From Chloroflexota bacterium (GTDB lineage: Bacteria; Chloroflexota; UBA11872; VXOZ01), in the NCBI GenBank assembly GCA_964291655.2, contig OZ219802.1, forward strand, positions 1,120,001-1,184,000: a DNA stretch of 64,000 bases. Direction: 5' to 3'. The notes below the pieces were generated by a model. The model was not told where the DNA came from. It did no database searches and was given only the letters and a program-made list of their open reading frames with translations. Shown in pieces: positions 31,846 through 50,667 of this stretch. Each line of letters opens with the position of its first letter. Within the stretch, counting starts at the first letter, position 1. The translations under genes and the position numbers were made by a program.

Positions 31846-33366
31846 TCACTCGCGGCAATTTGGATAGCCGGCAATCTCATCGGTGCCGCTCGACTGCAAC
31901 GGTCGTCCGATGCGGACGCGACCGCGCCAGCCCGTGTCCGCCGAAGTCATGTCGCACCAGTAGAAGCTGCGCGCCTGGAACGTGGCAATATCCGGAATGT
32001 GCCGCCATGCGCCAGCCGTGAACACATAGTAATCCCCATTAGAATCCACCAGTTGATTCTCGGCAGGATGCATTTCATCCAATGGGATCGCGTTCACAAT
32101 GCTCTGCGGGAACGTCCAGAAGTCCAGCACGTCTTGCCACGGCACCTGGTACCGCTCGGCGCTATCGGGGGCAATCCAGACACGGACCACCCGGTTGTCG
32201 GACTCGCGAACTACCACTCCGTAGGTCTGGCCCAGGCCCTCATCGCGAATGTAGCCATTGCGATTGAAGCCGCGGGAGCCGTCCGGACCAATGTAGCCAA
32301 TGTTCATGAAGAAGTCCTGGCCTCGGCTCAGGTCGAAGTGGATGCGACTGTCACCCACTCGCGTAACCCGTGCCGCGCTGGTTCTCCCAACGAGTGTGAC
32401 CGGCTGCGGGGTCGGACTCGCAGACGGCCCCGGTGTCGATGTTGCTGCCGCTGTGCCAATAGAATCGGACCACTCGAAGGTTTCCTCAAAGTCACTCTCA
32501 AGGTCAGGAGGATTACCATCGTCGTCTCGCAGGTCGGCAAAGGTGATATCGAACTCATAGGAGAATTCAATCCGCGCGGCAGCGGCGTCATCCTCGGTCA
32601 ACGTGTACTTCTTCGATTCCGGCGTGCCTTGGGATCCCGTTCTAAGCGGCCGAATGATGAACAGCAATCCCCTGGGGCTGCTCGAAGACCCAATCTCGTC
32701 GCCATTCGCGTCATACAACTGCTTGCGGATACGTACCAGCTTTGTTCTGAACAGCCAAAACTCGCCGGTAGTCACCGCCAACGTGAACGTAACATCCTCG
32801 CCCTCGGCAAACCTCCTAGGCGGGGTCATGTCCATGACCACACCCACTTCCGATATTTCCTCGGTCGTGGTTTCGGCCTTTCTGACCACGACCACGGGAA
32901 CCTTGTTGCTCTTGATGGTGACAGAATTATGGATTCTTGTGTCTGCGTGACCAGGCACGAAATTAAGTTGGAATTGAATGAGCGCAGTACGACGCCCGGC
33001 AGCGCCGAGATCCGCTGGCTGAACCAAATACTTTACTTCCTTGGAGAAGAAGATCTTTCCCCCCTCAAGGCTGTCTGATAGGGTATCGCCAAGCATTTCG
33101 GGACCAAATCCACCGCCGGTAACACTACTCAACTGAGCCTTGAAGGGGACAGAATGTTCAGCGTTCCGACTCACAAAGACCTCAAATGTCAGTACTGTCC
33201 CAACCTTTACCGTTGTCTTGTTGTCTATACGACCGATCGACAACGCTATGCCGTAGTCATCGTCATCCTCGACATCAATGGGACCATGGGCGGACACCGT
33301 TAGCAGCGAGGCTCCCAGCAGCACAAGCGCCAGCAAGATGCTCAACAAACGAGACACAGGTCTCAC
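31846..33366 (-). CDS. Secreted surface/S-layer-like protein A, unknown family
   Basis: Sec signal peptide, T/P-rich linker, C-terminal ~170 aa shared with 36230-37813; GAAAGGA RBS. Confidence 0.8.
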   Translation of the reverse strand: MRPVSRLLSILLALVLLGASLLTVSAHGPIDVEDDDDYGIALSIGRIDNKTTVKVGTVLTFEVFVSRNAEHSVPFKAQLSSVTGGGFGPEMLGDTLSDSLEGGKIFFSKEVKYLVQPADLGAAGRRTALIQFQLNFVPGHADTRIHNSVTIKSNKVPVVVVRKAETTTEEISEVGVVMDMTPPRRFAEGEDVTFTLAVTTGEFWLFRTKLVRIRKQLYDANGDEIGSSSSPRGLLFIIRPLRTGSQGTPESKKYTLTEDDAAAARIEFSYEFDITFADLRDDDGNPPDLESDFEETFEWSDSIGTAAATSTPGPSASPTPQPVTLVGRTSAARVTRVGDSRIHFDLSRGQDFFMNIGYIGPDGSRGFNRNGYIRDEGLGQTYGVVVRESDNRVVRVWIAPDSAERYQVPWQDVLDFWTFPQSIVNAIPLDEMHPAENQLVDSNGDYYVFTAGAWRHIPDIATFQARSFYWCDMTSADTGWRGRVRIGRPLQSSGTDEIAGYPNCRE

Positions 33367-33744
33367 AGTTTCCTATCCTTTCACTAGAACGTCTGCTTCC
33401 TTAGAGCAGAACCGTTTCCAATTGCAAAGCAGAAGAGAGATCGAAAGAGACACCCGATTCCGGGTAATTGGAACGCGTTGGCGAATAGGCTCCCTTCTTA
33501 ATGGCTATTCCGCGCGCAGGCGGAATCGTGCGGATATGTCACAGTCTCCGGAAGGTAGACTAGTGGGGAGATCGTTGCTGACCTGGTCGGTAGCGCCAGG
33601 AGCACGGTACGCTAATGCAGAACACATCTCTCTGATCTTCATGCGCACCTACAGCGTCCACCTCCGCACCGCGGAGTGCGGCATGGCGGGCGTACGCTTT
33701 GCGGTCTTGCTTAAAAGTGTAGCAGAGTGGCCTGTTTGCTGCAA
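33367..33744 (-). promoter_or_regulatory. Promoter TTGCAG-N17-TACACT (extended -10) and ~340-nt structured 5' leader of protein A
   Basis: -35 at 33744-33739, -10 at 33721-33716; homologous to 37814-38151. Confidence 0.65.
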
Positions 33745-33995
33745 GAGGTACACACGTCGGCGGAATTGACGGGTATGTAACCTCAATCTCATGGTACCTT
33801 CTCACTATCGCCGCGTTGCACGGCTATTCTGCGACGCATTGGCATCACCCTCACCCCTGTATCCAGTACGGGGGTGAGGGTGAATCTACCGAAATCTCTC
33901 CATATGCACACCGACTCTGCCCTGATACGTCTTGCCACTACCCAGCGTAAAGGGCCATTGTAGCAAAAAGACCCCCCTCACCCCGGCCCTCTCCC

Positions 33996-34283
33996 TGTAC
34001 AGACCGGGGACATAGGTAACAGTTGTTCGGGGACATGGGTTACACATTTTACTGATTGACACCTACGAGAGCATTGGGTTGGTCCGGGTTTGATAAGAGA
34101 CTGGCGACACAGTGCACTCACTTTCAGCCTGTCAGCTTGTGCCAGAGAAACAAACTGTGTGCATAAGGATATTGAGCGGATCTAACTTTCAAGGCAAGGA
34201 CATCGCATACTACGAAAATCCCCTCGTTCTATGGTGTAACCTATGTGCCCGAACATGTGTAACCCATGTACCCGGTCTATACA
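33996..34283 (-). mobile_element. IS481-derived MITE A1 (288 bp)
   Basis: TGT..ACA ends matching the IS at 40501-41765; CTCCC duplication. Confidence 0.92.
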
Positions 34284-34350
34284 CTCCCCCAGGAGAGGGA
34301 GTGCCTCTGCTTGCAAGTGGGGTTGTGCAATGGTCTCCCCAGGGAGAGCA

Positions 34351-34489
34351 AACTGGATTCTCATTCCCCTCTCCGACTCCCTCTCCCCGGGGGAGAGGAA
34401 ACTGGAGACTTATTCCCTCATCTGACTCCCTCTCTCCAGGGGAGAGGAAACTGAACACTTACTCCCTCATCTGACTCCCTCTCCCCGGG
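34351..34489. repeat. About 3 x 49-bp tandem hairpin repeat
   Basis: AACTG..TCCCTCATCTGACTCCCTCTCCCC..GGAGAGG at 34351, 34400, 34449. Confidence 0.8.
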
Positions 34490-34777
34490 TGTATAGACCG
34501 GGTACATGGGTTACACATGTTCGGGCACATAGGTTACACCATAGAACGAGGGGATTTTCGTAGTATGCGATGTCCTTGCCTTGAAAGTTAGATCCGCTCA
34601 ATATCCTTATGCACACAGTTTGTTTCTCTGGCACAAGCTGACAGGCTGAAAGTGAGTGCACTGTGTCGCCAGTCTCTTATCAAACCCGGACCAACCCAAT
34701 GCTCTCGTAGGTGTCAATCAGTAAAATGTGTAACCCATGTCCCCGAACAACTGTTACCTATGTCCCCGGTCTGTACA
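34490..34777 (+). mobile_element. IS481-derived MITE A2 (288 bp), inverted to A1
   Basis: Appears identical to A1 and A3; only GGG shared by the flanks. Confidence 0.92.
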
Positions 34778-35250
34778 GGGAGAGGGTCGGGGTGAGGGGA
34801 TTTCTGCTTTGCCCATCCTCTTTAACAGGTAGACCGATACGCCAATGTGCAGTAACGGGAAATCTTGGCTCCCAGTTTGCGGGACTCTCCCCTCTCACCT
34901 CCGTATGCGGAAATCTCCCCCTCACCCTAGCCCTCTCCCCGAGGAGAGGGGACAAGATGCTCTCGACCGCTATTGATCCCTCTCGCCGGCCACTGGGGAT
35001 AAGTCCTCTCCCGGCCGCTCTTGCTCCCTGTTCCCGACCGCTGGGGACGAGTCCTCTCCTGGCCATTCTTCCTCCCCTCACCCTAGCCCTCTCCCCGAGG
35101 AGAGGGGACAAGATGCTCCCGGTCACTCTTGCTCCCTATCGTTTGCCACTGGGGCTAGATTACGCGTAGTCTCTCTTGTTCCCTTTACCCGGCCGCTGGG
35201 GATGAATCCTCTCCTGGCTGTTCTTCCTCCCCTCACCCTAGCCCTCTCCC

Positions 35251-35538
35251 TGTATAGACCGGGTACATGGGTTACACATGTTCGGGCACATAGGTTACAC
35301 CATAGAACGAGGGGATTTTCGTAGTATGCGATGTCCTTGCCTTGAAAGTTAGATCCGCTCAATATCCTTATGCACACAGTTTGTTTCTCTGGCACAAGCT
35401 GACAGGCTGAAAGTGAGTGCACTGTGTCGCCAGTCTCTTATCAAACCCGGACCAACCCAATGCTCTCGTAGGTGTCAATCAGTAAAATGTGTAACCCATG
35501 TCCCCGAACAACTGTTACCTATGTCCCCGGTCTGTACA
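35251..35538 (+). mobile_element. IS481-derived MITE A3 (288 bp)
   Basis: CTCCC duplication; empty-site copies at about 34916-34962 and 35073-35120. Confidence 0.92.
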
Positions 35539-36073
35539 CTCCCCAAGGAGAGGGGACAAGACCCGGAGCTCGCTTTCCTCCTCTTCCCGGCCGCTGGGGA
35601 TGAGTCCTCTCCCGGCCGCTCTTGCTCCCTCTCCCGGTGGAGACCTTTGCGCAACTCAAGCGGTAGCGAAATAGTTCCCTCTCCCTCGACGGGAGAGGGC
35701 TAGGGTGAGGGTGAGTCTCCTGAAATCTCTCCATATGCACACCGATTCTGCCCTGATATGTCTTGACACTGCCCAGCGTAAAGGGTCATCGTAGCAAAAG
35801 CCCCCCTCACCCCAACCCTCTCCCCCAGGAGAGGGAGTGCCCCTGCTTGAAAGTGGGGTTATGCAAAGGTCTCCGGTGGGAGAGGGTTGGGGTGAGGGGG
35901 AGAACGAAGATGTGCCTATGGCATACGCAGTGGGTACGCCTAGGCACATGGAATGGACGCGCGAATTATACGATTACTGCGTCACAATGGTGACACGCTT
36001 CACAGAGGATGCATTCCGATCTGGACGCCCTCCTTCGAGCAGGCGCTCTGAGGAGCACGTCCAATTAAATATA

Positions 36074-36109
36074 CAAGAGCCGGTGTCCTGCCACAGACAC
36101 CGGCTCTTG
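36074..36109 (-). terminator. Terminator-like hairpin after surface protein B
   Basis: CAAGAGCCGGTGTC..GACACCGGCTCTTG. Confidence 0.8.
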
Positions 36110-36229
36110 CCGTAGCATAAGGAGACTGTACAGACCCCCCGGGCCGCTAGCGTGCGGTCATCACGCTTCTGCTGTCCCGGATACTGATAACACTAAGTGT
36201 AACCTGCCCATACAGCTTTAATGCATCCT

Positions 36230-37813
36230 TTACGAGTGGCACACAGGATAATCGGGATCCTCAGTGTCACCACTGGAAGGCAACGCCTGTCCAAGTTGGA
36301 TATTGTCGGCCCAGCCCTCAGCAGCCGTCGTCAAGTCGCAATAGAAATAGCCACGCGACTGGAACGTCGGGATGTTGGGGATGTGCCGCCATGCGCCGCC
36401 TGTGTAGGCGTACCACGTGCCGCCGGCATCAACCAGTTGGTTCGGCGCCGGTGCCGTGTGATCCAGCGGGATGGCATTCACAACGTCCTTCGGCACGTTG
36501 TAGAAGTCCAGCACCGCAACCCAGTCAATGTCACCCACGTGAGGACTGGCCGATGAGATCCAGACACGCACGATCGCGCCATCGGACTCACGGGCCACCA
36601 CCGCGTAGGTCTGACCGAGGTTACTGTCGCGGATGTAACCGTTGGAATGCGGCTCGAGCGTGCCGTCGGCAGCCAGAACACCAACGCCAAGGCTGAAGTT
36701 GGTGCCGCCGTCATGCCGCTCGACGTCAACGAGGTTGCCCGCGCCCTTCGTCACCGTGGCCGCTTCGGTCATACCGACCGGCGGCTCCGGCGTGGCTTCC
36801 GGCTCAGGAGCAGCGACAGGCAACGTCAGAAGGATACCCTCTGAGGTCTCTATCGTGTCTAGCGTGTCATCGTCCTTGTTGAAGTCAGTTCGCTCTTCCT
36901 GAGGCAGAGCGCCGGTGTCGAGCACGGCAGCATCATTCTTTGTGATATCGGCCTCATTGATGTCGAGCTCATAGGAGAACTCTATGGACCCACCCTCATC
37001 GAGGGCGTCGACGTCCGCTTGCGACAGCGTGTAATCCGCCTCAATGGCGGAACTCGTCGAATTGGTCTTGAGGTCATCAATCTGCATCGCGGCTACCGGC
37101 AGCGCAACGCCGTCATCCTCGCCGTCAGCGTCTTTCACCTGCTTCATGATGAGGAAGCTGCCGCCTCTGTACCGGTAATCGGCTGTCGAAACTGTCAACG
37201 AGAACTCGATCTCGTTGCCCTTTTCAATCTCAGGCACCACAGGATCGGCAAAGTCCAGCACCACACCGGTAGCGCCGCCCTCTGCAGCCGGCCTAGTTTC
37301 AATCAGGATGGCATCTGAGGCCGTAACCTCTGAGTCAGCCGCAGCAATTTCATGTTCGTCGTCGGCGTTGTTAGCGACAAAATGGTCAGCCGTAAACGCG
37401 AGCGTCCACTCCAAGGTGAGCGTGCGGCTGGAAACACCTGTATCCAAACCAGGAACCTCGTACGTGACTTCCGCTTCATGGAACGTCGACGTGGCGATTG
37501 TACCCGCGTCTACCACAGTGTCCTCGGCGTATATTGCGAATGCCGCAACATCGTCGGAGCTATCAGCAGTTCCATCAGGCCCCACCACTGTGGCGCTCGT
37601 GATACTATGGTCACCAAGCCGGTAGACAGTGATCATGAACGTCAACTCATCACCGGGATAAATCGCATCCGGCGGATCTACCATGACGACTGACATGGTG
37701 GCATACGATTCACCATCCGCGTCGGTAGTTGCATCTGCTGACGCCGTCGCCATCGACAGACCCATCAGTATGAGCGCTATAAAGACGCTCAACAAACGAG
37801 ACAATTGTCTCAC
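36230..37813 (-). CDS. Secreted acidic surface/S-layer-like protein B, paralog of A
   Basis: MRQLSRLLS signal peptide, D/E/T/A rich, PEPEATPEP linker, shared C-terminal domain. Confidence 0.8.
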   Translation of the reverse strand: MRQLSRLLSVFIALILMGLSMATASADATTDADGESYATMSVVMVDPPDAIYPGDELTFMITVYRLGDHSITSATVVGPDGTADSSDDVAAFAIYAEDTVVDAGTIATSTFHEAEVTYEVPGLDTGVSSRTLTLEWTLAFTADHFVANNADDEHEIAAADSEVTASDAILIETRPAAEGGATGVVLDFADPVVPEIEKGNEIEFSLTVSTADYRYRGGSFLIMKQVKDADGEDDGVALPVAAMQIDDLKTNSTSSAIEADYTLSQADVDALDEGGSIEFSYELDINEADITKNDAAVLDTGALPQEERTDFNKDDDTLDTIETSEGILLTLPVAAPEPEATPEPPVGMTEAATVTKGAGNLVDVERHDGGTNFSLGVGVLAADGTLEPHSNGYIRDSNLGQTYAVVARESDGAIVRVWISSASPHVGDIDWVAVLDFYNVPKDVVNAIPLDHTAPAPNQLVDAGGTWYAYTGGAWRHIPNIPTFQSRGYFYCDLTTAAEGWADNIQLGQALPSSGDTEDPDYPVCHS

Positions 37814-38151
37814 AGTCCTTTCCTTTCACTAGATTGTCTGCTTCCGTGAAGCAGACCTAGAAATCTCGAATTAACACCCAACATTACCGGGCTATTCCGG
37901 CGCGTGCATGAAGATACACTCCCTTCTTGAATTGCTATCCCGCGCTGAGGGGGAATCGTGGGTGTACGTCACACTCCCCAGGGTGGCAGACCAGGGTGGT
38001 CATTGCTGACCCGACCGTTGACGCCAATAGCACGGTATGTTGATACGAGACAATACATGCTGACATTACTGTGCGCCCACGGCGTCATTTATCGTGAGCG
38101 TGCACTCGTCAGCTCGCCCTGTAGTGTAACAGACCACCCCAGGCCATGCAA
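37814..38151 (-). promoter_or_regulatory. Promoter TTGCAT-N17-TACACT (extended -10) and ~300-nt structured 5' leader of protein B
   Basis: -35 at 38151-38146, -10 at 38128-38123. Confidence 0.65.
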
Positions 38152-38287
38152 GAGGTAATCGCGAAAAAACAGCAAAACGACCGGGCGACAAAATAGGCTG
38201 ACTCGCTCCGACCCGACGGGTGTCGCTGTTCGCACGGTACACTTGTAGGGACAAAGCCAATGGACTTTCTCCTGCCCACGAAGGCTG

Positions 38288-38344
38288 CGCAACTATAATT
38301 TGCGCTCGCAACTATAGGTTGCGCCCGCATCTATAAAGATACGC
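38288..38344. repeat. 3 x 19-bp tandem semi-palindromes (CGCAACTATAGGTTGCG)
   Basis: Units at 38288, 38307, 38326. Confidence 0.7.
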
Positions 38345-38531
38345 CTGCATCATGGGTGTGCGCTTGTCAGCGCATTCCAGTGTAGCAAAGGGCCAAGACC
38401 AGTGCAAGCACAACTCATTGCCAACCTCAGGGTATTGCTGCATCACCACCTGGCGCGGTCCCGCAGCCGCCCTTGCCCGACCCAACCACAGAGACCCCGC
38501 GACCAGGGGACGGGGCGGACTTGGCGAGACC

Positions 38532-40223
38532 CTACCTTGCAACTGCGCATCTCTGCCATGCAATCGTAGGCCGGAGCGGGACACATTTCCCCTCACCCCG
38601 GCCCTCTCCCCCAGGGAGAGGGAGCAGAGTACGGAGGCGAGAGGGGGGGAATCCCCTCTCCTGGGGAGGCTGTCTCAATATTTTGGTGCGGGGCACGGTG
38701 AATGGGGTGAGAAGGACAGACAGATGGCGGGTGGTATGAACAAGACGGTGCCAGTGAGAGACTCGTCCCCGGGGCGACGCTGGACTACACCCAGACCGCC
38801 ACAGGGCGTGGAGGCTCTTGAGATTGAACGCGGTGGCCAGCAGGTGCCATTCGGACGTCACGTGGCTGCGGCCTCTGAGCAGGAAGCGCCTGGCACTGTG
38901 CCACTCCTTGAGCAGGCCAAAGACCGGCTCGACGATGGTACTCCGGCGGCGGTACACCTGCTTGGCAGGCGCGGTGGCCATCAACTGCCTGTGCCGTTGC
39001 AGTATTGGCTCGTAGGCGCTGATCTTTATGGAGCGGCCCCTCTGGGAGGAGGTGCAGACGCCGAAGGCCGGACAGGTTCTGCAGTCCCGGCCGTTGGCTT
39101 GGTACCGCTTGACCCGGTAGCCGTTGCTGTGGGTCAAGCGGTGCGTGTAGGTGAGCACCTTTTGCTGGGGACACAGGTAGGTGTCGGTCTCTGGACGGTA
39201 GGTGAAGTGGTCTTTATGGTAGGGGTTGCGGCGTCTGCGCTCGTGGGTCGTGGGCATCAATACCGTGTGGCCGCCGGCGTGGCACGTGGCGAGGTTGGCC
39301 CCCGAATGGTAGCCGGCGTCCGCAACGGTCACCACGTCCCGCGCGGCGTCGATGTTCTCCTGCGCCGCCTCGATCAGCGGCGCCAGGTGGGGATGGTCGT
39401 CGGCACTGGCGCTCACGTCCACGGCTGTGATCAACCTCCCCCCTGCGCCCTCGTCCGGGGACGCAAGAGGGGAGACCAGCGCCTGGGCGTTGTAGCCGGT
39501 GATGAAGCCACCCATGCCAGTCTTGAGCAGGGCCGCGTCCGCATCAGTCAGGTTCGTGTAGCGCGGCCCGTCCTCAGCCGCGACGCGGGCGAGCGCGTCG
39601 TCCACCCGCCGCCGCAGGGCCTGGGCATCGGCAAGTTCCTGCGGCAAAGTCGCTGGCGGCGCGTCGCCCCCCGTGGCGTTCTGCGCCTCCAGGTCCGCGA
39701 TCGCTTGCTCGGTGCGGGACAACAGCCGCTGCAGCCCCTGCGCGTCGTGGGTATGCCGCGTCCCGGCGTTGGCCGCGATCCTGGTGCCGTCCACCGCCTG
39801 GATTGCCAACTCCACCAGGCCGGCTCGCACCGCCGTGCGCACCGTGCGCTTGAGCAGCGTCCGCATCCGGTCGCGGTGCGCCTTGTAGAAGCGCCACAGC
39901 GTGTTGTGGTCCGGCTGCTGCATCCCCACCAGCCACAGGTACGGTACCTGATCCCGGCAGGCTGCCTCCAGCTTGCGGCTCGAGCGCACGCCGGTCATGA
40001 AGCCGTAGACCCATACGCCCAGCAGCGCGCGCGGATGGTAGGCCCCGGCGCCACGCGGATCGCCTTGCAGGTCAATCTCCATCGCCTCCCAGGCCGCAGC
40101 ATCGAGGCTGTCCACGAACGCTGCCGCAAACCTGACAGGATGGTCGTCCGGGATCAGTTCGTCCAGCGTCGGCGGCAACAGCCAGGCCTGTTCACGACTA
40201 AACGGTCTCAACGGCATCGTCAC
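38532..40223 (-). CDS. IS1182-family DDE transposase (frame runs past the TIR)
   Basis: Q..LLPP.LDELIP.DHP, YHPR.LL, SSRKLE, PDH.T..RF, AVDGT.I.ANA, TDADA, ADAGY, VEPVFG. Confidence 0.93.
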   Translation of the reverse strand: MTMPLRPFSREQAWLLPPTLDELIPDDHPVRFAAAFVDSLDAAAWEAMEIDLQGDPRGAGAYHPRALLGVWVYGFMTGVRSSRKLEAACRDQVPYLWLVGMQQPDHNTLWRFYKAHRDRMRTLLKRTVRTAVRAGLVELAIQAVDGTRIAANAGTRHTHDAQGLQRLLSRTEQAIADLEAQNATGGDAPPATLPQELADAQALRRRVDDALARVAAEDGPRYTNLTDADAALLKTGMGGFITGYNAQALVSPLASPDEGAGGRLITAVDVSASADDHPHLAPLIEAAQENIDAARDVVTVADAGYHSGANLATCHAGGHTVLMPTTHERRRRNPYHKDHFTYRPETDTYLCPQQKVLTYTHRLTHSNGYRVKRYQANGRDCRTCPAFGVCTSSQRGRSIKISAYEPILQRHRQLMATAPAKQVYRRRSTIVEPVFGLLKEWHSARRFLLRGRSHVTSEWHLLATAFNLKSLHALWRSGCSPASPRGRVSHWHRLVHTTRHLSVLLTPFTVPRTKILRQPPQERGFPPSRLRTLLPLPGGEGRGEGKCVPLRPTIAWQRCAVAR

Positions 40224-40310
40224 TACCTCTCTACAAACTATCCCACCACCTCACCTTGCTTCTCTTCACACCAGTATATATCCAGTAGATCTATTTTTGA
40301 GACACCCTCT
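38666..40310 (-). mobile_element. IS1182-family insertion sequence in a REP hairpin
   Basis: TIR GAGGCTGTCTCAA / TTGAGACACCCTC (12/13); probable TGGG duplication; right boundary uncertain by 1 bp. Confidence 0.88.
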
Positions 40311-40500
40311 TGGGGAGAGGGAGCAGAGTACGGGGGCAAGGGGCGGGGGAAGTCCCCTCTCCTTGGGGAGAGGGTTAGGGTGAGGGGGAGATTACCGCAA
40401 ACTGGGAGCCTCTTTTCCCGGTTATTGCACTCTTGCGTATCGGTCTTGCAGTTAAGGTGGATGGGGTACGCAGAAATCCCCTCACCCCGGCCCTCTCCCC

Positions 40501-41765
40501 TGTATAGACCGGGTACATGGGTTACACATGTTCGGGCACATAGGTTACACCTTAAGGCATGGAGATTCTTACAGATGGAGGAGCGCCATGCCTTGGAAGG
40601 AGAGTACGGTTGTGTCTGAACGCAAGGAGTTCATTGCACTGGCACTGATGGAAGGGGCCAACATCAGCGAGCTGTGTCGCCGTCTGGAGATCAGTCGCAA
40701 GACGGCGTACAAGACGCTGGAGCGGTATGCGAAAGCTGGCGAAGACGGTTTGCACGACCGGTCGCGGCGGCCGCACACGTGTCCGCACCGCACGCGCCCG
40801 GCGCTGGAGGAGCGCATCATCGCCTTGCGCCTGGCGCATCCGAAGAAAGGCGCACACGTGCTGCGCCGGATGCTGCAGGACCAGGGGGTCACCGACGTGC
40901 CGGCCAAGAGCACCATCAATGCCATTCTCAAACGCCATGGGCTCATCGATCCAGCCCAGAGCGCCAAGCACACGCCCCATGTGCGCTTCGAACGACCCCA
41001 GCCCAACGAGCTGTGGCAGATGGACTTCAAGGGACATTTCGTCATGCAGCAGAACCGCTGTCATCCTCTCACCCTCCTAGACGATCACTCCCGCTTCAAC
41101 CTCGGGTTACAGGCCTGTGCCAACGAGCGGGGAGAGACGGTCCAAGACCGCCTCACCGCTGTCTTTCGCCGCTACGGCTTGCCCCAGGCCATGCTCATGG
41201 ACAACGGCTCTCCCTGGGGTAACGACAGTGCCCAGCCCTTCACGCCCCTCACCGTCTGGCTCATGCAGCTGGGCATCAACGTCCTGCACAGCCGACCCTA
41301 CCATCCCCAGACACTCGGCAAGCTGGAACGCTTCCACCGCTCCCTCAAGAGCGAACTGCTGGCAGGGACCACCTTTACCGACCTGGACCATTGCCAGCGC
41401 GCCTTTGACACCTGGCGCCACTTCTACAACTTGGAACGCCCACACCATGCCCTCGATCTCGACACTCCCATTACCAGATACACGCCTAGTCCTCGCCCTT
41501 TCCCAGAGACCTTGCCTGCCCTCGCCTACGCTCCCGACGACCGCGTACGCAGCGTCGATGTCTCCGGCCGCATCTCCTTCCAAGGCAGACGGCTCCGTGT
41601 GGGCAGGGCCTTCACGCACAAGCAAGTCGCCCTGCGACCCACCCGAACGGACGGTGTCTGGGACGTGTACTTCTCGATCCAAAGAGTAAAAACCATAGAC
41701 CTCAGAGCACAAAATGTGTAACCTATCTACCCGAACATCTGTTACCTATGTCCCCGGTCTGTACA
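40501..41765 (+). mobile_element. IS481-family insertion sequence (1265 bp) in a REP hairpin
   Basis: TGTATAGACCGGG..CCCGGTCTGTACA ~50-bp TIRs with two internal repeats; TCCCC duplication. Confidence 0.95.
40588..41721 (+). CDS. IS481-family transposase
   Basis: MPWKE, ISELCRRLEISRKT.YK HTH, PNELWQMDFKG, DDHSRF, DNG.PW, HPQTLGKLERFH; GGAGGAG RBS. Confidence 0.96.
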   Translation: MPWKESTVVSERKEFIALALMEGANISELCRRLEISRKTAYKTLERYAKAGEDGLHDRSRRPHTCPHRTRPALEERIIALRLAHPKKGAHVLRRMLQDQGVTDVPAKSTINAILKRHGLIDPAQSAKHTPHVRFERPQPNELWQMDFKGHFVMQQNRCHPLTLLDDHSRFNLGLQACANERGETVQDRLTAVFRRYGLPQAMLMDNGSPWGNDSAQPFTPLTVWLMQLGINVLHSRPYHPQTLGKLERFHRSLKSELLAGTTFTDLDHCQRAFDTWRHFYNLERPHHALDLDTPITRYTPSPRPFPETLPALAYAPDDRVRSVDVSGRISFQGRRLRVGRAFTHKQVALRPTRTDGVWDVYFSIQRVKTIDLRAQNV

Positions 41766-42147
41766 TCCCCCCAGGGAGAGGGAGTGCCCTTGCTTGAAAG
41801 TGGGGTTATGCAGAGGTCTCCCAGGGGAGAGGGTGCAGAGTACGGATCCGAGTAAACTTGGAGCAATTCCGATTCCCTCTCCCTGGGGAGAGGGTTAGGG
41901 TGAGGGGAACCCCATCTCAACACACCGCAGACCCTCCCGCAGGGACGACTTACGCGATAGTCCCTCTTTAAAGGAAGCGACCGTGCACCTCGCTTCCACG
42001 GCGCGCCCTCCGCAGGCGGCGCGAGAGAGCAGCCGCGCGGTTGCCAGCCACCAAAACCGGGCGCGCAATGATACAATCATCCATATCAATCGTGAGCATG
42101 TTGGCGCGGCGACGATCCGGCTGCATTAAAGAAGAGGAGTGGGTGTG

Positions 42148-43383
42148 ATGGAACGACTGGCCCTGCACGGCGGGACACCGGTACGCGACGGTACGAAGCG
42201 TTGGCCTAAGTGGCCGCAGTTTGACGAGACGGAACTGCGCAACGTGCGCGCGGTCTTCGAGAGCAACCTCTGGGGCGGCACGTCGCACGGTCCCATGAAG
42301 ATGGCGGCGCAGGAGCAATTCGCCGCCTACCATGACGCGAAGTTCGGCATTGGGCTCATCAGTTGTACCGCCGGCCTGGAAATCGGGCTGAAGGCGTTTG
42401 GCGTGGGCGCGGGCGATGAGGTGATCGTGCCGGCGTTTACGTTCATCGCCACGGCGTTTGCGCCCATGTACCTTGGGGCGACGCCGGTGATGGCGGACAT
42501 TCACCCGGGTTCGCTCTGCCTGGACCCCGACCGCACGGAGGAGGCGATCACGCCCCGCACCCGCGCTATCAGCCCGGTGCACTACGGCGGCTATCCGGCG
42601 GATATGGAGCGGTTTGCGGAGATTGCGCGCAAGCACGACCTGGCGATCATCGTGGATGCGGCCCACGCCCACGGGGCGGAGTGGAAAGGCACGAAACTCG
42701 GCGGCATGGGCGACGCCAGTTCCTACAGCCTGGGCGGCGGCAAGAATATGAGCACCGGCGAGGGCGGCATGCTGACCACGGATAACGAGGAACTGGCTGA
42801 GCGCTGGCTGTATACGCTCTCCAGCTTTGGCCGGGCCAAGGGCGAGCCGGGTTACGTGCACTACGAGCTGGGCGGCCACTACCCGATGAATGAGTTCCAG
42901 GCGGCGATCCTGCTGGGACAGATGGAGCGGTTCGACGAGCAGACGAAGATACGCAACCGCAACGCGCGGTATCTCAACAGCCTGCTGGCGCAGATTGACG
43001 GCATCGAGCCGCCGCCGATTCCGCCGGAGGTGACCCAGCACGGCATGCACATCTACACGTTCCGCCTCAAGCCGGAAGAGTTCGGCACGGACAAACGGAC
43101 GTTCCTGGACGCCGCGCACGCGGAGGGCGTGCCGGTCTCCGGCGGGCACCCGCGGCCGATCTACGACAATCCGATGCTGGACCTGGAAACGGGCGACATC
43201 GCGGGCGGCGCGGGCAAATTCCGCGTGATGGAGTGTCCGGAGTCCGAACTCCTGACGCGGGAAGAAGGCATCGCTATGGGCCACGTGACCCTGCTGGCGG
43301 ATGAGTCCGATATGGACGACATCGCCGAGGGCATCGCCAAGGTGCGGCGCAACGTGGGCCAACTGCAACGAGTCGCGGTGTAG
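42148..43383 (+). CDS. DegT/DnrJ/EryC1/StrS aminotransferase
   Basis: GDEVIVPAFTF.AT, PVH.GG, DAAHAHG, K..STGEGG. Confidence 0.93.
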   Translation: MERLALHGGTPVRDGTKRWPKWPQFDETELRNVRAVFESNLWGGTSHGPMKMAAQEQFAAYHDAKFGIGLISCTAGLEIGLKAFGVGAGDEVIVPAFTFIATAFAPMYLGATPVMADIHPGSLCLDPDRTEEAITPRTRAISPVHYGGYPADMERFAEIARKHDLAIIVDAAHAHGAEWKGTKLGGMGDASSYSLGGGKNMSTGEGGMLTTDNEELAERWLYTLSSFGRAKGEPGYVHYELGGHYPMNEFQAAILLGQMERFDEQTKIRNRNARYLNSLLAQIDGIEPPPIPPEVTQHGMHIYTFRLKPEEFGTDKRTFLDAAHAEGVPVSGGHPRPIYDNPMLDLETGDIAGGAGKFRVMECPESELLTREEGIAMGHVTLLADESDMDDIAEGIAKVRRNVGQLQRVAV

Positions 43384-43770
43384 GACTACTCAAGGCGGTC
43401 GTTGGCGTGGCGCGAGTTGGACAAAGGCGTGCCGGGGTAGCGAGGACGCGGTGGCTCTCTCTAATGGTCAGACCGCTGAGTGCCTTGCCAGTCAGCCTTG
43501 GCGCCCGGCTGTTGGCTGGGCAAGGGTGCGGGGCTTTCCTTTAATGGGGTCACCGACCGGTGTCCTACCTCTATTGAGGGAGAATCTGCTGCTCAGAGGC
43601 TAGTCCCTCTTTAGAGGCTGGTCCCTTAATTGATGTAAGGAAGATGGCTTGGCGGAAAGATGGATTCCCGCTTTCGCGAGAATAACGGACGACGCGCCCC
43701 TCGCGTTACCCTCTCACCTTCGCTCATCTGTAGCCCTTCTTCAACATACAAATGACAGATCGTGTTCGGT

Positions 43771-44185
43771 CTTCCTCTGCGTAGCGCGGGGGCTTGTCCC
43801 CCGCTCTTCAAACATAGCCGCACTTCCAACCTGACCGACTCCGCCACGGCATGTCTTGCGGCACTCGCCCTGGGCGGAAGTGACGCATCGTATACCGCTT
43901 TCCTCTGCGTAGCGCGGGGGCTTGTCCCCCGCTCTTCATCCTTTCCCGCACTTCCAACCTGACCGATTCTGCCACGGCATGTCATGCGGCACTCGCCCTG
44001 CGCGGAAGTGACGTATCGCAAACCGCCTTCCTCTGCGTAGCGTGGGGGCTTGTCCCCCGCTCTTCACACTTTCCCGCACTCCCAACCTGACCGACTCCGC
44101 CACGGCATGCCCCGCGGCACTCGCCCTGCGCGGAAGTGACGCATCGTATACCGCTTTCCTCTGCGTAGCGTGGGGGCTTGTCCCT
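43771..44185. repeat. 128-bp tandem array carrying a GTAG-REP (3.2 units)
   Basis: TTCCTCTGCGTAGCG at 43772, 43900, 44028, 44156. Confidence 0.92.
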
Positions 44186-44354
44186 CAATTTTGTGGCATC
44201 TACCGCCGGGGTGAAGAATGTGGTGTTCTCGGTGCCCTGCCCGGTAGCGCAGGTTTGCAACCTGCGTCCTCCTGCTGGAACGCAGTCCTTGTGGTTGCAT
44301 GTCTTTTCTTATTGCCGCAACGCTGCATTTCCCCCTCACCCCGGCCCTCTCCCC

Positions 44355-44641
44355 TGTATAGACCGGGTTGATGGGTAACAGGTGTTCGGGTTGATAGGTT
44401 ACACCATCGAATATGGGAGTTTTCGTTGTATGCAGTGTCCATGCCATGGAAGTTAGACCAACTCAATACCCTTATGGATACGGCTTTTCCCCTGGCACCA
44501 GCTCACGAACTGAACATGAGTATGTCGTGGTGCCTGGAACGTCTATTTCTCTGCCCAACCTAAAGCGCCCAAAGGTGTCAATCAGTACAATGTGTAACCT
44601 ATCAACCCGAACACCTGTTACCTATCAGCCCAGTCTGTACA
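44355..44641 (+). mobile_element. IS481-derived MITE, divergent subfamily (287 bp)
   Basis: TGTATAGACCGGG..GTCTGTACA; CTCCCC duplication; retains ATGCCATGGAAG (MPWK). Confidence 0.88.
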
Positions 44642-44746
44642 CTCCCCCAGGGAGAGGGAGCAAGACACGCCTCTCGAGGAGATTCGCGTTCCCTATGAGC
44701 GAAGGCGCTGCCAAACGTTCCCTTGTGCTTTTAGTGCGACAGCATT

Positions 44747-45093
44747 GGGGCTTGTCCCCCGCTCTTCATCCTTTCCCGCACTTCCAACCTGACCGACTTC
44801 ACCACGGCATGTCTTGCGGCACTCACCCTGCGCGGAAGTGACGCATCGCAAACCGCCTTCCTCTGTGTAGCGCGGGGGCTTGTCCCCCGCTCTTCACACT
44901 TTCCCGCACTCCCAACCTGACCGACTCCGCCACGGCATGTCATGCGGCACACGCCCTGCGCGGAAGTGACGCATCGCAAACCGCCTTCCTCTGCGTAGCG
45001 CGGGGGCTTGTCCCCCGCTCTTCATACATTCCCACACTTCCAACCTGATGTACTCCACTACGGCATTTGGCCGGGCACACGCCCTGCGCGGGA
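44747..45093. repeat. Second block of the 128-bp GTAG-REP tandem array (about 2.7 units)
   Basis: Unit starts at 44858 and 44986. Confidence 0.9.
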
Positions 45094-45342
45094 ATGGTAG
45101 ATTGCTTGGACAGAGACGAACTCACGGCTCCGGTGGGCAATCTCTTACCCAATAGGCCTGTCGCTGGCGGCGTCCAGCACAATACTCCGCCGGCAACATG
45201 AGACCCACTTTCATTCCCGAACAGAGCCTTCGGCAAACTCTGCCAAGAGATCGGTCTCGGACAGTGTGGACGTAGCTTCCAGTGTGGACGGAGCTTCGCC
45301 CTCACGTCAGCCCTTGCTTGCCATCCCATGCTCGTTCCGGGG

Positions 45343-45461
45343 GCGGAGTGAGCACACCTAGATTGTGAGCACACTTACAACGTGTGCACGATTATAGCTT
45401 GAGCACGTAGACAACGAGTGCAAATCTACAACTTGAGCACCTCGACAACGTGTGCATGCCT
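45343..45461. repeat. 7 x 17-bp degenerate direct repeats (ACAAC-K-TG-W-GCAC core)
   Basis: Units at 45343, 45360, 45377, 45394, 45411, 45428, 45445. Confidence 0.7.
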
Positions 45462-45555
45462 GCCGAGCCGCGGTGGAACCGAGCGCGCAGGCGCGCTACG
45501 GGTGGTAGAATGAAATTAAGGCAACCCACTAATTGAAAGCGAGCGTCATAGCCAA

Positions 45556-50087: not shown

Positions 50088-50667
50088 CGGCACCGGGAGC
50101 TTGCCTGCGGCTGACCGGGTGATGTGCCACTCCCGGACTGGGAGAGCATGCGGACCCATCGAGCGGCGCGGTGTCCCAGGAGCGAAGGATTCTATCCTGC
50201 GCTAGCCATTAGCAAGCTATCGCGCCACTCTACCAAACAGTCGGAAATGGGCCGGACCGGCACCGACTTCCCTCTCGCTAGCTGACCCTTGCGCAATTCT
50301 GAAGGCGGAGGGCAAATTTGCTGGAGAGAAAGAGAATTCCCCTCACCCCAACCCTCTCCCCCAGGAGAGGGAGTGCCCCTGCTTGAAAGTGGGTCTATGC
50401 AAAGGTCTCCCCAGGGAGAGGGAGTGTTCTCGCCTGTAGGCATGAGTCTTGCAAGGGCCTTCCCAGGGCGAAGGAGTACTCTCACCTGCAAGCCTGGGCA
50501 ATGCAGAAACCTCCCCAGGGCGTGGGAGGTCTCTTCATCAGCAGGGACAACAAGCTGTGCAAGGCATGCCCCGTACGTGGTACGGGGCTGTCTTCGACGG
50601 AGAGTTGGATTGGATCCCAATTAGGTTTGATCGAGGAAAACCCGGAATGGGACTGTTGTTCGAGCTG

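Follow-up and report, generated by a model that had tools for sequence, protein, structure and literature searches.

The 64,000-nucleotide window analysed here (Chloroflexota bacterium assembly GCA_964291655.2, contig OZ219802.1, positions 1,120,001 to 1,184,000) contains a 1265-bp insertion sequence (IS) of the IS481 family and four MITEs (miniature inverted-repeat transposable elements), each of which interrupts a copy of the same short repeat. It is very probable that a clade of IS481-family DDE insertion sequences, together with MITEs that carry their ~52-bp ends, transposes site-specifically into this repeat, the tripartite BoxC/PIT/TM motif. DDE strand transfer takes place in either orientation with a stagger of 5-6 bp, whose midpoint lies in the final bases of the central block, at its border with the loop. 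As an observational association, occupancy goes with motifs in which all three blocks are present.

When read on the C-rich strand, the motif consists of block 3 (CCCTCACCC), a 3-nt spacer, block 2 (CCCTCTCCC, the central block), a loop and block 1 (GGGAGAGGG). In all five window elements, one flank has the form CCCTCACCC-N3-CCCTCTCCC and the opposite flank carries GGAGAGGG. The first-pass annotation had reported these elements as insertions into one hairpin family; all five were located where it had placed them (Table 1), each interrupting the hairpin and with both orientations represented. The target-site duplications (TSDs) also agree with that report: CTCCC in A1 and A3, TCCCC in the IS and CTCCCC in B, with A2 as the exception, in which merely CCC/GGG (3 bp) is duplicated. 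MITEs A1, A2 and A3 are the same letter for letter (A1 inverted). When A2 was compared with the IS, an unbroken run of 51 nt was shared at the left end, with 1 mismatch in the first 54 nt, as had been expected from the earlier estimate of about 50 bp. The right ends have a run of 27 nt in common and differ at 4 of the last 55 nt.

Table 1 Elements, target motifs and related features (window coordinates unless a G000 position is given)
Feature	Position	Strand	Remarks
MITE A1	33996-34283	-	288-bp family, opposite in direction to A2 and A3; in TM motif, TSD CTCCC; motif halves 33974-33995 and 34284-34299
MITE A2	34490-34777	+	288-bp family; TM motif reversed, block 1 at 34477-34489, blocks 2 and 3 at 34778-34799; duplicates 3 bp (GGG) only
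MITE A3	35251-35538	+	288-bp family; in TM motif, TSD CTCCC; motif halves 35229-35250 and 35539-35554
IS481-family IS	40501-41765	+	1265 bp; ~52-bp imperfect terminal inverted repeats (TGTATAGACCGGG... / ...CCCGGTCTGTACA)
Transposase gene of the 1265-bp IS	40588-41721	+	377 aa from ATG at 40588; open frame from 40528, 397 aa
Left half of IS-interrupted TM/BoxC motif	40478-40500	+	Block 3 CCCTCACCC, spacer CGG, block 2 CCCTCTCCCC; ends in TSD copy TCCCC
Right half of IS-interrupted TM/BoxC motif	41766-41782	+	TSD copy TCCCC, loop, block 1 GGGAGAGGG
MITE B	44355-44641	+	287-bp family, with the IS subfamily of 86% identity as its cognate; in TM motif, TSD CTCCCC; motif halves 44331-44354 and 44642-44658
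Unoccupied three-block TM motif (example)	35805-35835	+	CCTCACCC-CAA-CCCTCTCC-CCCA-GGAGAGGG
Other unoccupied TM motifs	34920-34950, 35076-35106, 38591-38622, 50341-50371	+	
Other unoccupied TM motifs	35677-35710, 40355-40385, 41875-41905	-	
IS1182-like IS	38670-40305	-	DUF772 and DDE_Tnp_1_6 transposase; in CCCTCTCC...GGAGAGGG hairpin
1287-bp IS copies	G000:C2:1707063-1708349, 1755174-1756460, 1906013-1907299, 2408023-2409309		In TM motif

The source genome (3.47 Mb, 59 % G+C, two contigs) was searched for elements as pairs of the end motifs TGTAYAGACY and RGTCTRTACA. There were 79 occurrences of each end motif against about 8 expected for each, and pairing yielded 71 elements, namely 24 of 1265 bp, 4 of 1287 bp and 43 of 287-289 bp. 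The 16 unpaired end hits were excluded from all counts; truncated copies are among them, and by eye these also lie beside the repeat.

The transposase of the 1265-bp IS matched the IS481 model NF033577 with 290.2 bits (cut-off 224), and the runner-up, IS3, scored 116 bits, below its cut-off of 160. The Pfam domains HTH_28/HTH_32, LZ_Tnp_IS481, rve and rve_3 are encoded in a single open reading frame (ORF) with no programmed frameshift, and the long ORF is kept in all 24 copies. In the IS481 family, elements are ~1-1.3 kb long, their terminal inverted repeats start with TGT and the TSD is short. The 1265-bp IS agrees with the family in length, in inverted repeats that begin TGTAYAGACC (left and right repeats of the window IS agree at 45 of 55 positions) and in a TSD of 5-6 bp, found in 61 of the 71 elements (5 bp in 45, 6 bp in 16). 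By these matches, the transposase of the 1265-bp IS is a clear IS481-family member. Three subfamilies of the 1265-bp IS were distinguished, with 17, 2 and 5 copies. The 1287-bp IS is present as four mutually identical copies and encodes an IS481-type transposase with 55 % amino acid identity to the main one; it cuts 4-5 nt upstream of the position used by the main IS and duplicates CCCTC or CCCTCT.

The 287-289-bp elements have the properties of MITEs, as they are short and non-coding, carry IS inverted repeats and TSDs, and are found in 43 copies. They form two families, each of which pairs with one IS subfamily through its ~52-bp ends. The 288-bp family (32 copies) agrees with IS subfamily 1 at 51 of 55 positions at either end, and the 287-bp family (11 copies, 7 of them identical) agrees with IS subfamily 3 at 49 of 55 and 54 of 55 positions; the similarity stops about 54 nt in from each end. 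The window IS is one of 11 letter-identical copies among the 24, and the 288-bp family includes identical groups of 16, 7 and 5 members. So many identical copies of both IS and MITEs fit the recent activity that had been proposed from the identity of A1, A2 and A3.

For the junction test, each element and one TSD copy were removed in silico, and a hairpin was defined as CCCTCTCC-loop-GGAGAGGG with at most one mismatch per arm. In this genome-wide check of the flanks, 68 of the 71 junctions were found inside the hairpin, which covers 0.22 % of the genome (binomial p ~5e-177). Tobes and Pareja define a type 1 association of an IS with a repeat by at least four copies of which more than 45 % are inserted in the repeat (available text of PMC1525189), and with 68 of 71 elements in the repeat the association found here is of this type. 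Among the 63 IS1265 and MITE insertions that could be oriented, the positions of 52 agree to within one nucleotide, straight after CCCTCTCCC or CCCTCTCCCC. The elements themselves show no preferred orientation relative to the repeat (20:20 for MITEs, 11:12 for IS). The side of insertion is uneven, though the hairpin is palindromic: 61 insertions are on the central-block side, 5 are on the block-1 side at the mirror position (TSD AGGAG) and 1 is in the spacer.

Of the three junctions outside the hairpin, one belongs to a 1287-bp copy with a partner hairpin arm that is broken by another IS, one to a MITE with flanks that seem to be swapped with those of a neighbouring copy, and one to a MITE located in a different palindrome. 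Two MITEs 9 kb apart (G000:C2:1511277-1511564 and 1520257-1520544) carry long arms on both sides in one case and short arms on both sides in the other; an inversion through recombination of one with the other would produce such mismatched flanks. The MITE at G000:C2:1507574-1507861 and an IS in another species (L028) share the TSD ATACG and a palindrome made of CCCCGTACTCGATACGGGG followed by GGGTGAGGGTG, which looks like a secondary target type.

A distribution of this kind could in principle arise without any targeting, if insertion were random or biased towards CTCCC and only the copies in harmless repeats survived, since REP-like repeats (REP, repetitive extragenic palindrome) are intergenic and presumably neutral. 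This is hardly credible for the present elements. CTCCC occurs 7,780 times on both strands of the whole genome, yet nearly all elements are in the hairpin, so the insertions do not follow any CTCCC; repeat variants that lack one block are spared. The small share of the genome that holds the elements and the precision of the insertion point also argue against such survivorship, as does the same pattern in letter-identical, hence recent, copies. Targeting that goes beyond CTCCC, as the first-pass annotation had proposed, is borne out.

By its block architecture, the target repeat is the intrastrand-triplex motif known as BoxC, PIT or "TM". Holder et al. (2015, NAR 43:10126, PMC4666352) give the TM motif, formerly BoxC or PIT, as 5'-CCCTCNCCC N3-6 GGGNGAGGG N3 GGGNGAGGG-3' in the available text. 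The same three 9-nt blocks are found here, and spacers agree too: in reverse complement, CGG and TAA of this genome read CCG and TTA, as in that motif. According to the same text, the motif is present in more than 260 genomes, with 23 natural copies in E. coli K-12, and is tied to loci that vary between close strains. The text also describes it as having no transposon association, transposase remnants never being met near it in E. coli; unlike in that account, about one third of the motifs here carry an IS or a MITE. When elements were removed, 217 loci of the genome fitted the three-block pattern with at most one mismatch per block. A first motif search at 2 mismatches had returned 283 false long arms among 493, and stricter definitions were used instead. 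As single-stranded DNA, the empty motif is predicted to fold into an 8-bp Watson-Crick hairpin (-9 kcal/mol, z = -3.2). An Rfam scan of 33000-45500 matched no family.

The repeat had been labelled a REP at first pass. In the sense of a RAYT-associated REP the label does not stand, and the repeat is better described by the tripartite BoxC/PIT/TM motif. The single RAYT gene of the genome (L001 1399-2079, G000:C2, minus strand; NF047646, 82 bits with a cut-off of 80) has tandem units with a GCGGGCGAGACGCCCGC hairpin on its flanks and not the TM motif. The GCGGGCGAGACGCCCGC repeat is a second, distinct family and may be the true REP of this genome. A composite form of the TM motif was also observed, for example at 35805-35905, where two inverted long arms surround AGTGCCCCTGCTTGAAAGTGGGGTTATGCAAAGGTCTCC in a doublet of ~100 bp.

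When occupied and empty motifs were compared, an element was present in 67 of the 215 hairpins that have block 3 and in 1 of the 86 that lack it (Fisher p = 1.6e-10). Long arms (blocks 3 and 2) that are followed by a complete block 1 were occupied in 68 of 210 cases, and none of the 38 followed by the GGAGACCTTTGC variant without block 1 was occupied (p = 2e-6). From these observed contrasts, all three blocks appear to be needed for insertion. The hairpin had been proposed as the target, and it does hold the insertions; the hairpin alone is insufficient, and blocks 3 and 1 both matter. Occupancy also differed among spacer subtypes, at 42-50 % for CGG, CAA and CGA and 12-17 % for TAG and TAA, and only 2 of 34 motifs with a CGTCGAG loop were occupied. 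Loop length did not predict occupancy (58/166 vs 12/51, p = 0.17). A variant in which GGAGACCTTTGCRTAAC stands in place of block 1 is found in 38 copies genome-wide, with zero occupancy by the IS481 group.

The flanking arms CCCTCTCCC and GGGAGAGGG form an inverted repeat, so one might suppose that the repeat halves belong to the element itself, or that the IS spreads between repeats by gene conversion. Both are exceedingly improbable. Against them stand 148 three-block motifs that are empty, orthologous empty sites with a single target copy in a sister genome, and identical IS copies whose flanking motifs differ in spacer and loop subtype, with insertion in either orientation and TSDs of varying length and position.

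The sister genome, G008, is the closest one compared (~95 % identical), and seven MITE loci were queried in it. Three clean orthologous empty sites were observed, with colinear flanks, an intact repeat and a single target copy (CTCCC, CTCCCC and GGGAG). It follows from these sites that the repeat predates the insertion and that the target was duplicated by it. A fourth site is empty, 12 nt shorter and without block 3. At the remaining loci, the flanks lie at contig ends (L111), the contig begins inside an element copy (L112) or the sequence is not colinear (L114).

The window itself was less simple in this comparison. A 3.3-kb block at 38618-41916, which contains motifs, the IS1182-like IS and the IS481 element and is bounded by inverted long arms, is absent from G008 (L095, G008:C34), with no motif at all at its position. 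Because the whole cluster of motifs and IS is absent, the site of the window IS is not a simple empty site. At the MITE B site, G008 has an intact TM motif and no MITE beside the same left flank, but also ~170 nt of extra sequence, so this site is not clean. The motif doublets look as if they were themselves mobile (REPIN-like), or at least indel-prone. Variability of motif loci between close strains is thus common to the motif of Holder et al. and to the clusters of this genome. Upstream of the neighbouring aminotransferase gene, motif content in 15 genomes of the same genus was too variable for a site-by-site comparison. Contigs assembled from sequencing runs break at the repeats, and joints that skip an IS have sides of 21-22 nt that lie within the repeated motif, so that they may derive from other motif copies.

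The motif is also used by other mobile elements. All 23 paired genome copies of the 1636-bp IS1182-like IS are in the hairpin, with flanks of the form CCCTCTCC-N4-(A/G)AGG-IS-CCTC-N4-GGAGAGG(G/A), and by eye the third block is present on one side in about 20 of the 23. Its ORF (38532-40223, minus strand) runs ~46 codons beyond the IS end that was set by comparison of copies. Among 286 long arms, 68 are joined to the IS481 group and 26 to other IS ends. As this IS is unrelated to IS481, the motif is a shared landing site. The pairing of IS481 and hairpin that had been noted at first pass thus holds, and it is not exclusive, since a second IS481 member (the 1287-bp IS) and the IS1182-like IS use the motif too. 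Two more IS-like ends abut the motif loop (G000 C1/C2, types Z and W), CTGTCTCATRRGTCGAC at 4 places and CCGTCTCATAATTCCGCTACAG at 2 places.

Of the 16 further genomes of the genus, 15 contain the IS, with nucleotide identities of 78-89 % and usually in many copies. With one locus per genome, 10 loci from other species of the genus could be evaluated, and in 9 of them the insertion point is spanned by a perfect stem of at least 7 bp. A wider survey with one genome per species covered the best 80 of 567 loci, from metagenome-assembled genomes (MAGs) of uncultured Chloroflexota and Dehalococcoidia and from a few other phyla. At 71-85 % amino acid identity, a perfect stem of at least 7 bp was present in 17 of 22 loci and a TM block within 40 nt in 19 of 22; at 62-65 % the counts were 19 of 26 and 24 of 26. 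Random positions in the source genome gave 2.7 % and 3.9 %, respectively. Judged by these flanks, the habit extends to relatives of the IS within the genus and elsewhere in Chloroflexota, down to ~62 % amino acid identity. The cut position shifts by clade: one clade duplicates ACGGG/CCCGT in hairpins with a 5-nt loop, and another duplicates GGCCT at the centre of a 7-nt loop on a 15-bp stem. Relatives in MAGs labelled Desulfobaccales and Desulfurivibrio (L064, L092) have C-rich/G-rich flanks that resemble the motif, which hints at a spread of the IS beyond Chloroflexota.

Several results weigh against site-specific transposition into the three-block motif as set out above. Eight of the 71 elements lack an exact TSD, and four of these, independent insertions, have the arrangement TCCCC-element-TCCCA instead (G000:C2:1435983, 2239312, 1464678 and 835518). 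The block contrasts are observational, and the subtypes of the repeat are unequal in age and setting. Occupancy is not the same across spacer and loop subtypes, so features beyond the presence of the blocks matter too. That every paired IS1182-like copy is in the hairpin would follow more readily from something general about the motif, such as its structure or a host protein bound to it, than from separate reading of its sequence by each transposase. Among the relatives at 57-60 % amino acid identity, just 5 of 27 loci had the perfect stem and 8 of 27 a TM block within 40 nt. Lastly, a few genomes supplied many of the surveyed loci (the best 80 of 567), so these do not count as independent.

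Alternatively, targeting may be directed by structure, the transpososome recognising a non-B form of the motif rather than its duplex sequence (an extruded hairpin, a cruciform, or a triplex formed through the folded-back third block). We regard this as possible but rather unlikely. Occupancy is associated with all three of the blocks that define the triplex, and the empty motif has the predicted fold given above. Related IS clades sit in palindromes whose stems, loops and TSDs differ, and the IS1182-like transposase, though unrelated, makes use of that hairpin as well. In vitro, the E. coli motif folds into an intrastrand triplex that is stable, according to the available text of Holder et al. 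(PMC4666352). Together, the unrelated transposase on the motif and the need for the triplex-forming block keep a structural reading alive. On the other side, a TSD of 5-6 bp suits the normal staggered cut of a B-form duplex, and the dependence on spacer and loop subtype points to reading of the sequence. Tn7 reportedly inserts next to triplex DNA in vitro, as Rao, Miller and Craig are said to have described in PNAS in 2000, and would set a precedent for attraction of a transposition machine to a DNA triplex; that case concerns an artificial intermolecular triplex, another transposase system and in vitro conditions only, whereas the motif here is natural and intrastrand and a structural role is a candidate only. 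The more specific proposal, in which the transposition complex reads an intrastrand triplex (the hairpin stabilised by the third block) and BoxC/TM motifs are structure-coded landing pads for several unrelated transposase families, is in our judgement unlikely.

It is quite improbable that a host protein bound to BoxC/TM tethers the transposition complexes of unrelated families. Sharing of the motif by two IS481 members with different cut offsets and by the IS1182-like IS would be expected under such tethering, but the precision at the nucleotide level, which differs by IS clade, fits recognition encoded by the element better. We know of no host protein of such kind that binds the motif.

For site-specific transposition directed by the element, the following course is proposed. 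One transposase would mobilise both IS and MITEs in trans through their shared ends. The transpososome itself would read the motif, most likely as a duplex with three 9-bp sites (one inverted, two direct), and the side with the tandem blocks 2 and 3 would set the cut position. The benefit to the elements may be a neutral intergenic landing site, which would allow copies to rise (28 IS and 43 MITEs in 3.5 Mb) without hits in genes.

Compared with known systems, IS1397 and ISKpn1 of the IS3 family, which insert in or beside the palindrome loop of short, intergenic enterobacterial palindromic units (PUs; REP/BIME), are likewise of the DDE rve type and belong to the family nearest to IS481. Both make a short target duplication, as do the IS481 elements described here. 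The latter differ in having a single ORF without frameshift, in using BoxC/TM rather than the PU as target, in an extra block outside the palindrome that is seemingly required, and in abundant MITEs with the same specificity. The prototype IS481 of Bordetella has a transposase of the same family and is likewise small, with terminal inverted repeats and a short TSD; its reported target is a short NCTAGN-like sequence, in contrast to the 30-nt repeat here. REP-targeting elements of the IS110 family make no duplication and insert in a single orientation, whereas a TSD of 5-6 bp and both orientations were observed in this genome. Like the present elements, IS621, ISPpu9, ISPpu10 and ISPa11 of the IS110 family have all or nearly all copies at one REP position (available text of PMC1525189). 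These elements encode DEDD recombinases with a bridge or seeker RNA guide, unlike the DDE transposase with inverted repeats found here.

In the available text of Tobes and Pareja (2006, PMC1525189), the REP-targeting IS belong to the IS3, IS110, IS4, IS256 and IS5 families, IS481 is nowhere mentioned, and the specificity of the IS1397 type is attributed to the transposase itself. No paper linking IS481 to REP, palindrome or hairpin targeting or to other target specificity of this kind was found in a literature search that left ISfinder, TnCentral and the papers' supplements outside its scope, in line with the first-pass annotation, which had been aware of none. Likewise, no paper linking BoxC, PIT or the intrastrand triplex with IS targeting was found, papers' supplements again being outside the search. 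While REP-targeting IS are known as a kind, it is strongly supported that the IS481 family and two MITE families join them.

The function of the BoxC motif has been open since the 1990s, and the motif, reported to be free of mobile elements, is here a frequent site of them. Motif clusters with nested IS differ between genomes that are ~95 % identical, which offers a testable route from the motif to genome instability. The IS481 element represents a natural, guide-free DDE transposase with a site selectivity of ~30 nt, and the motif copies of E. coli K-12 would allow a direct test of the target rules. If the triplex is indeed what the transposition complex reads, the BoxC/TM motifs in hundreds of bacterial genomes, E. 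coli included, would be natural landing pads, and a mechanism for the link between the motif and instability would be provided.

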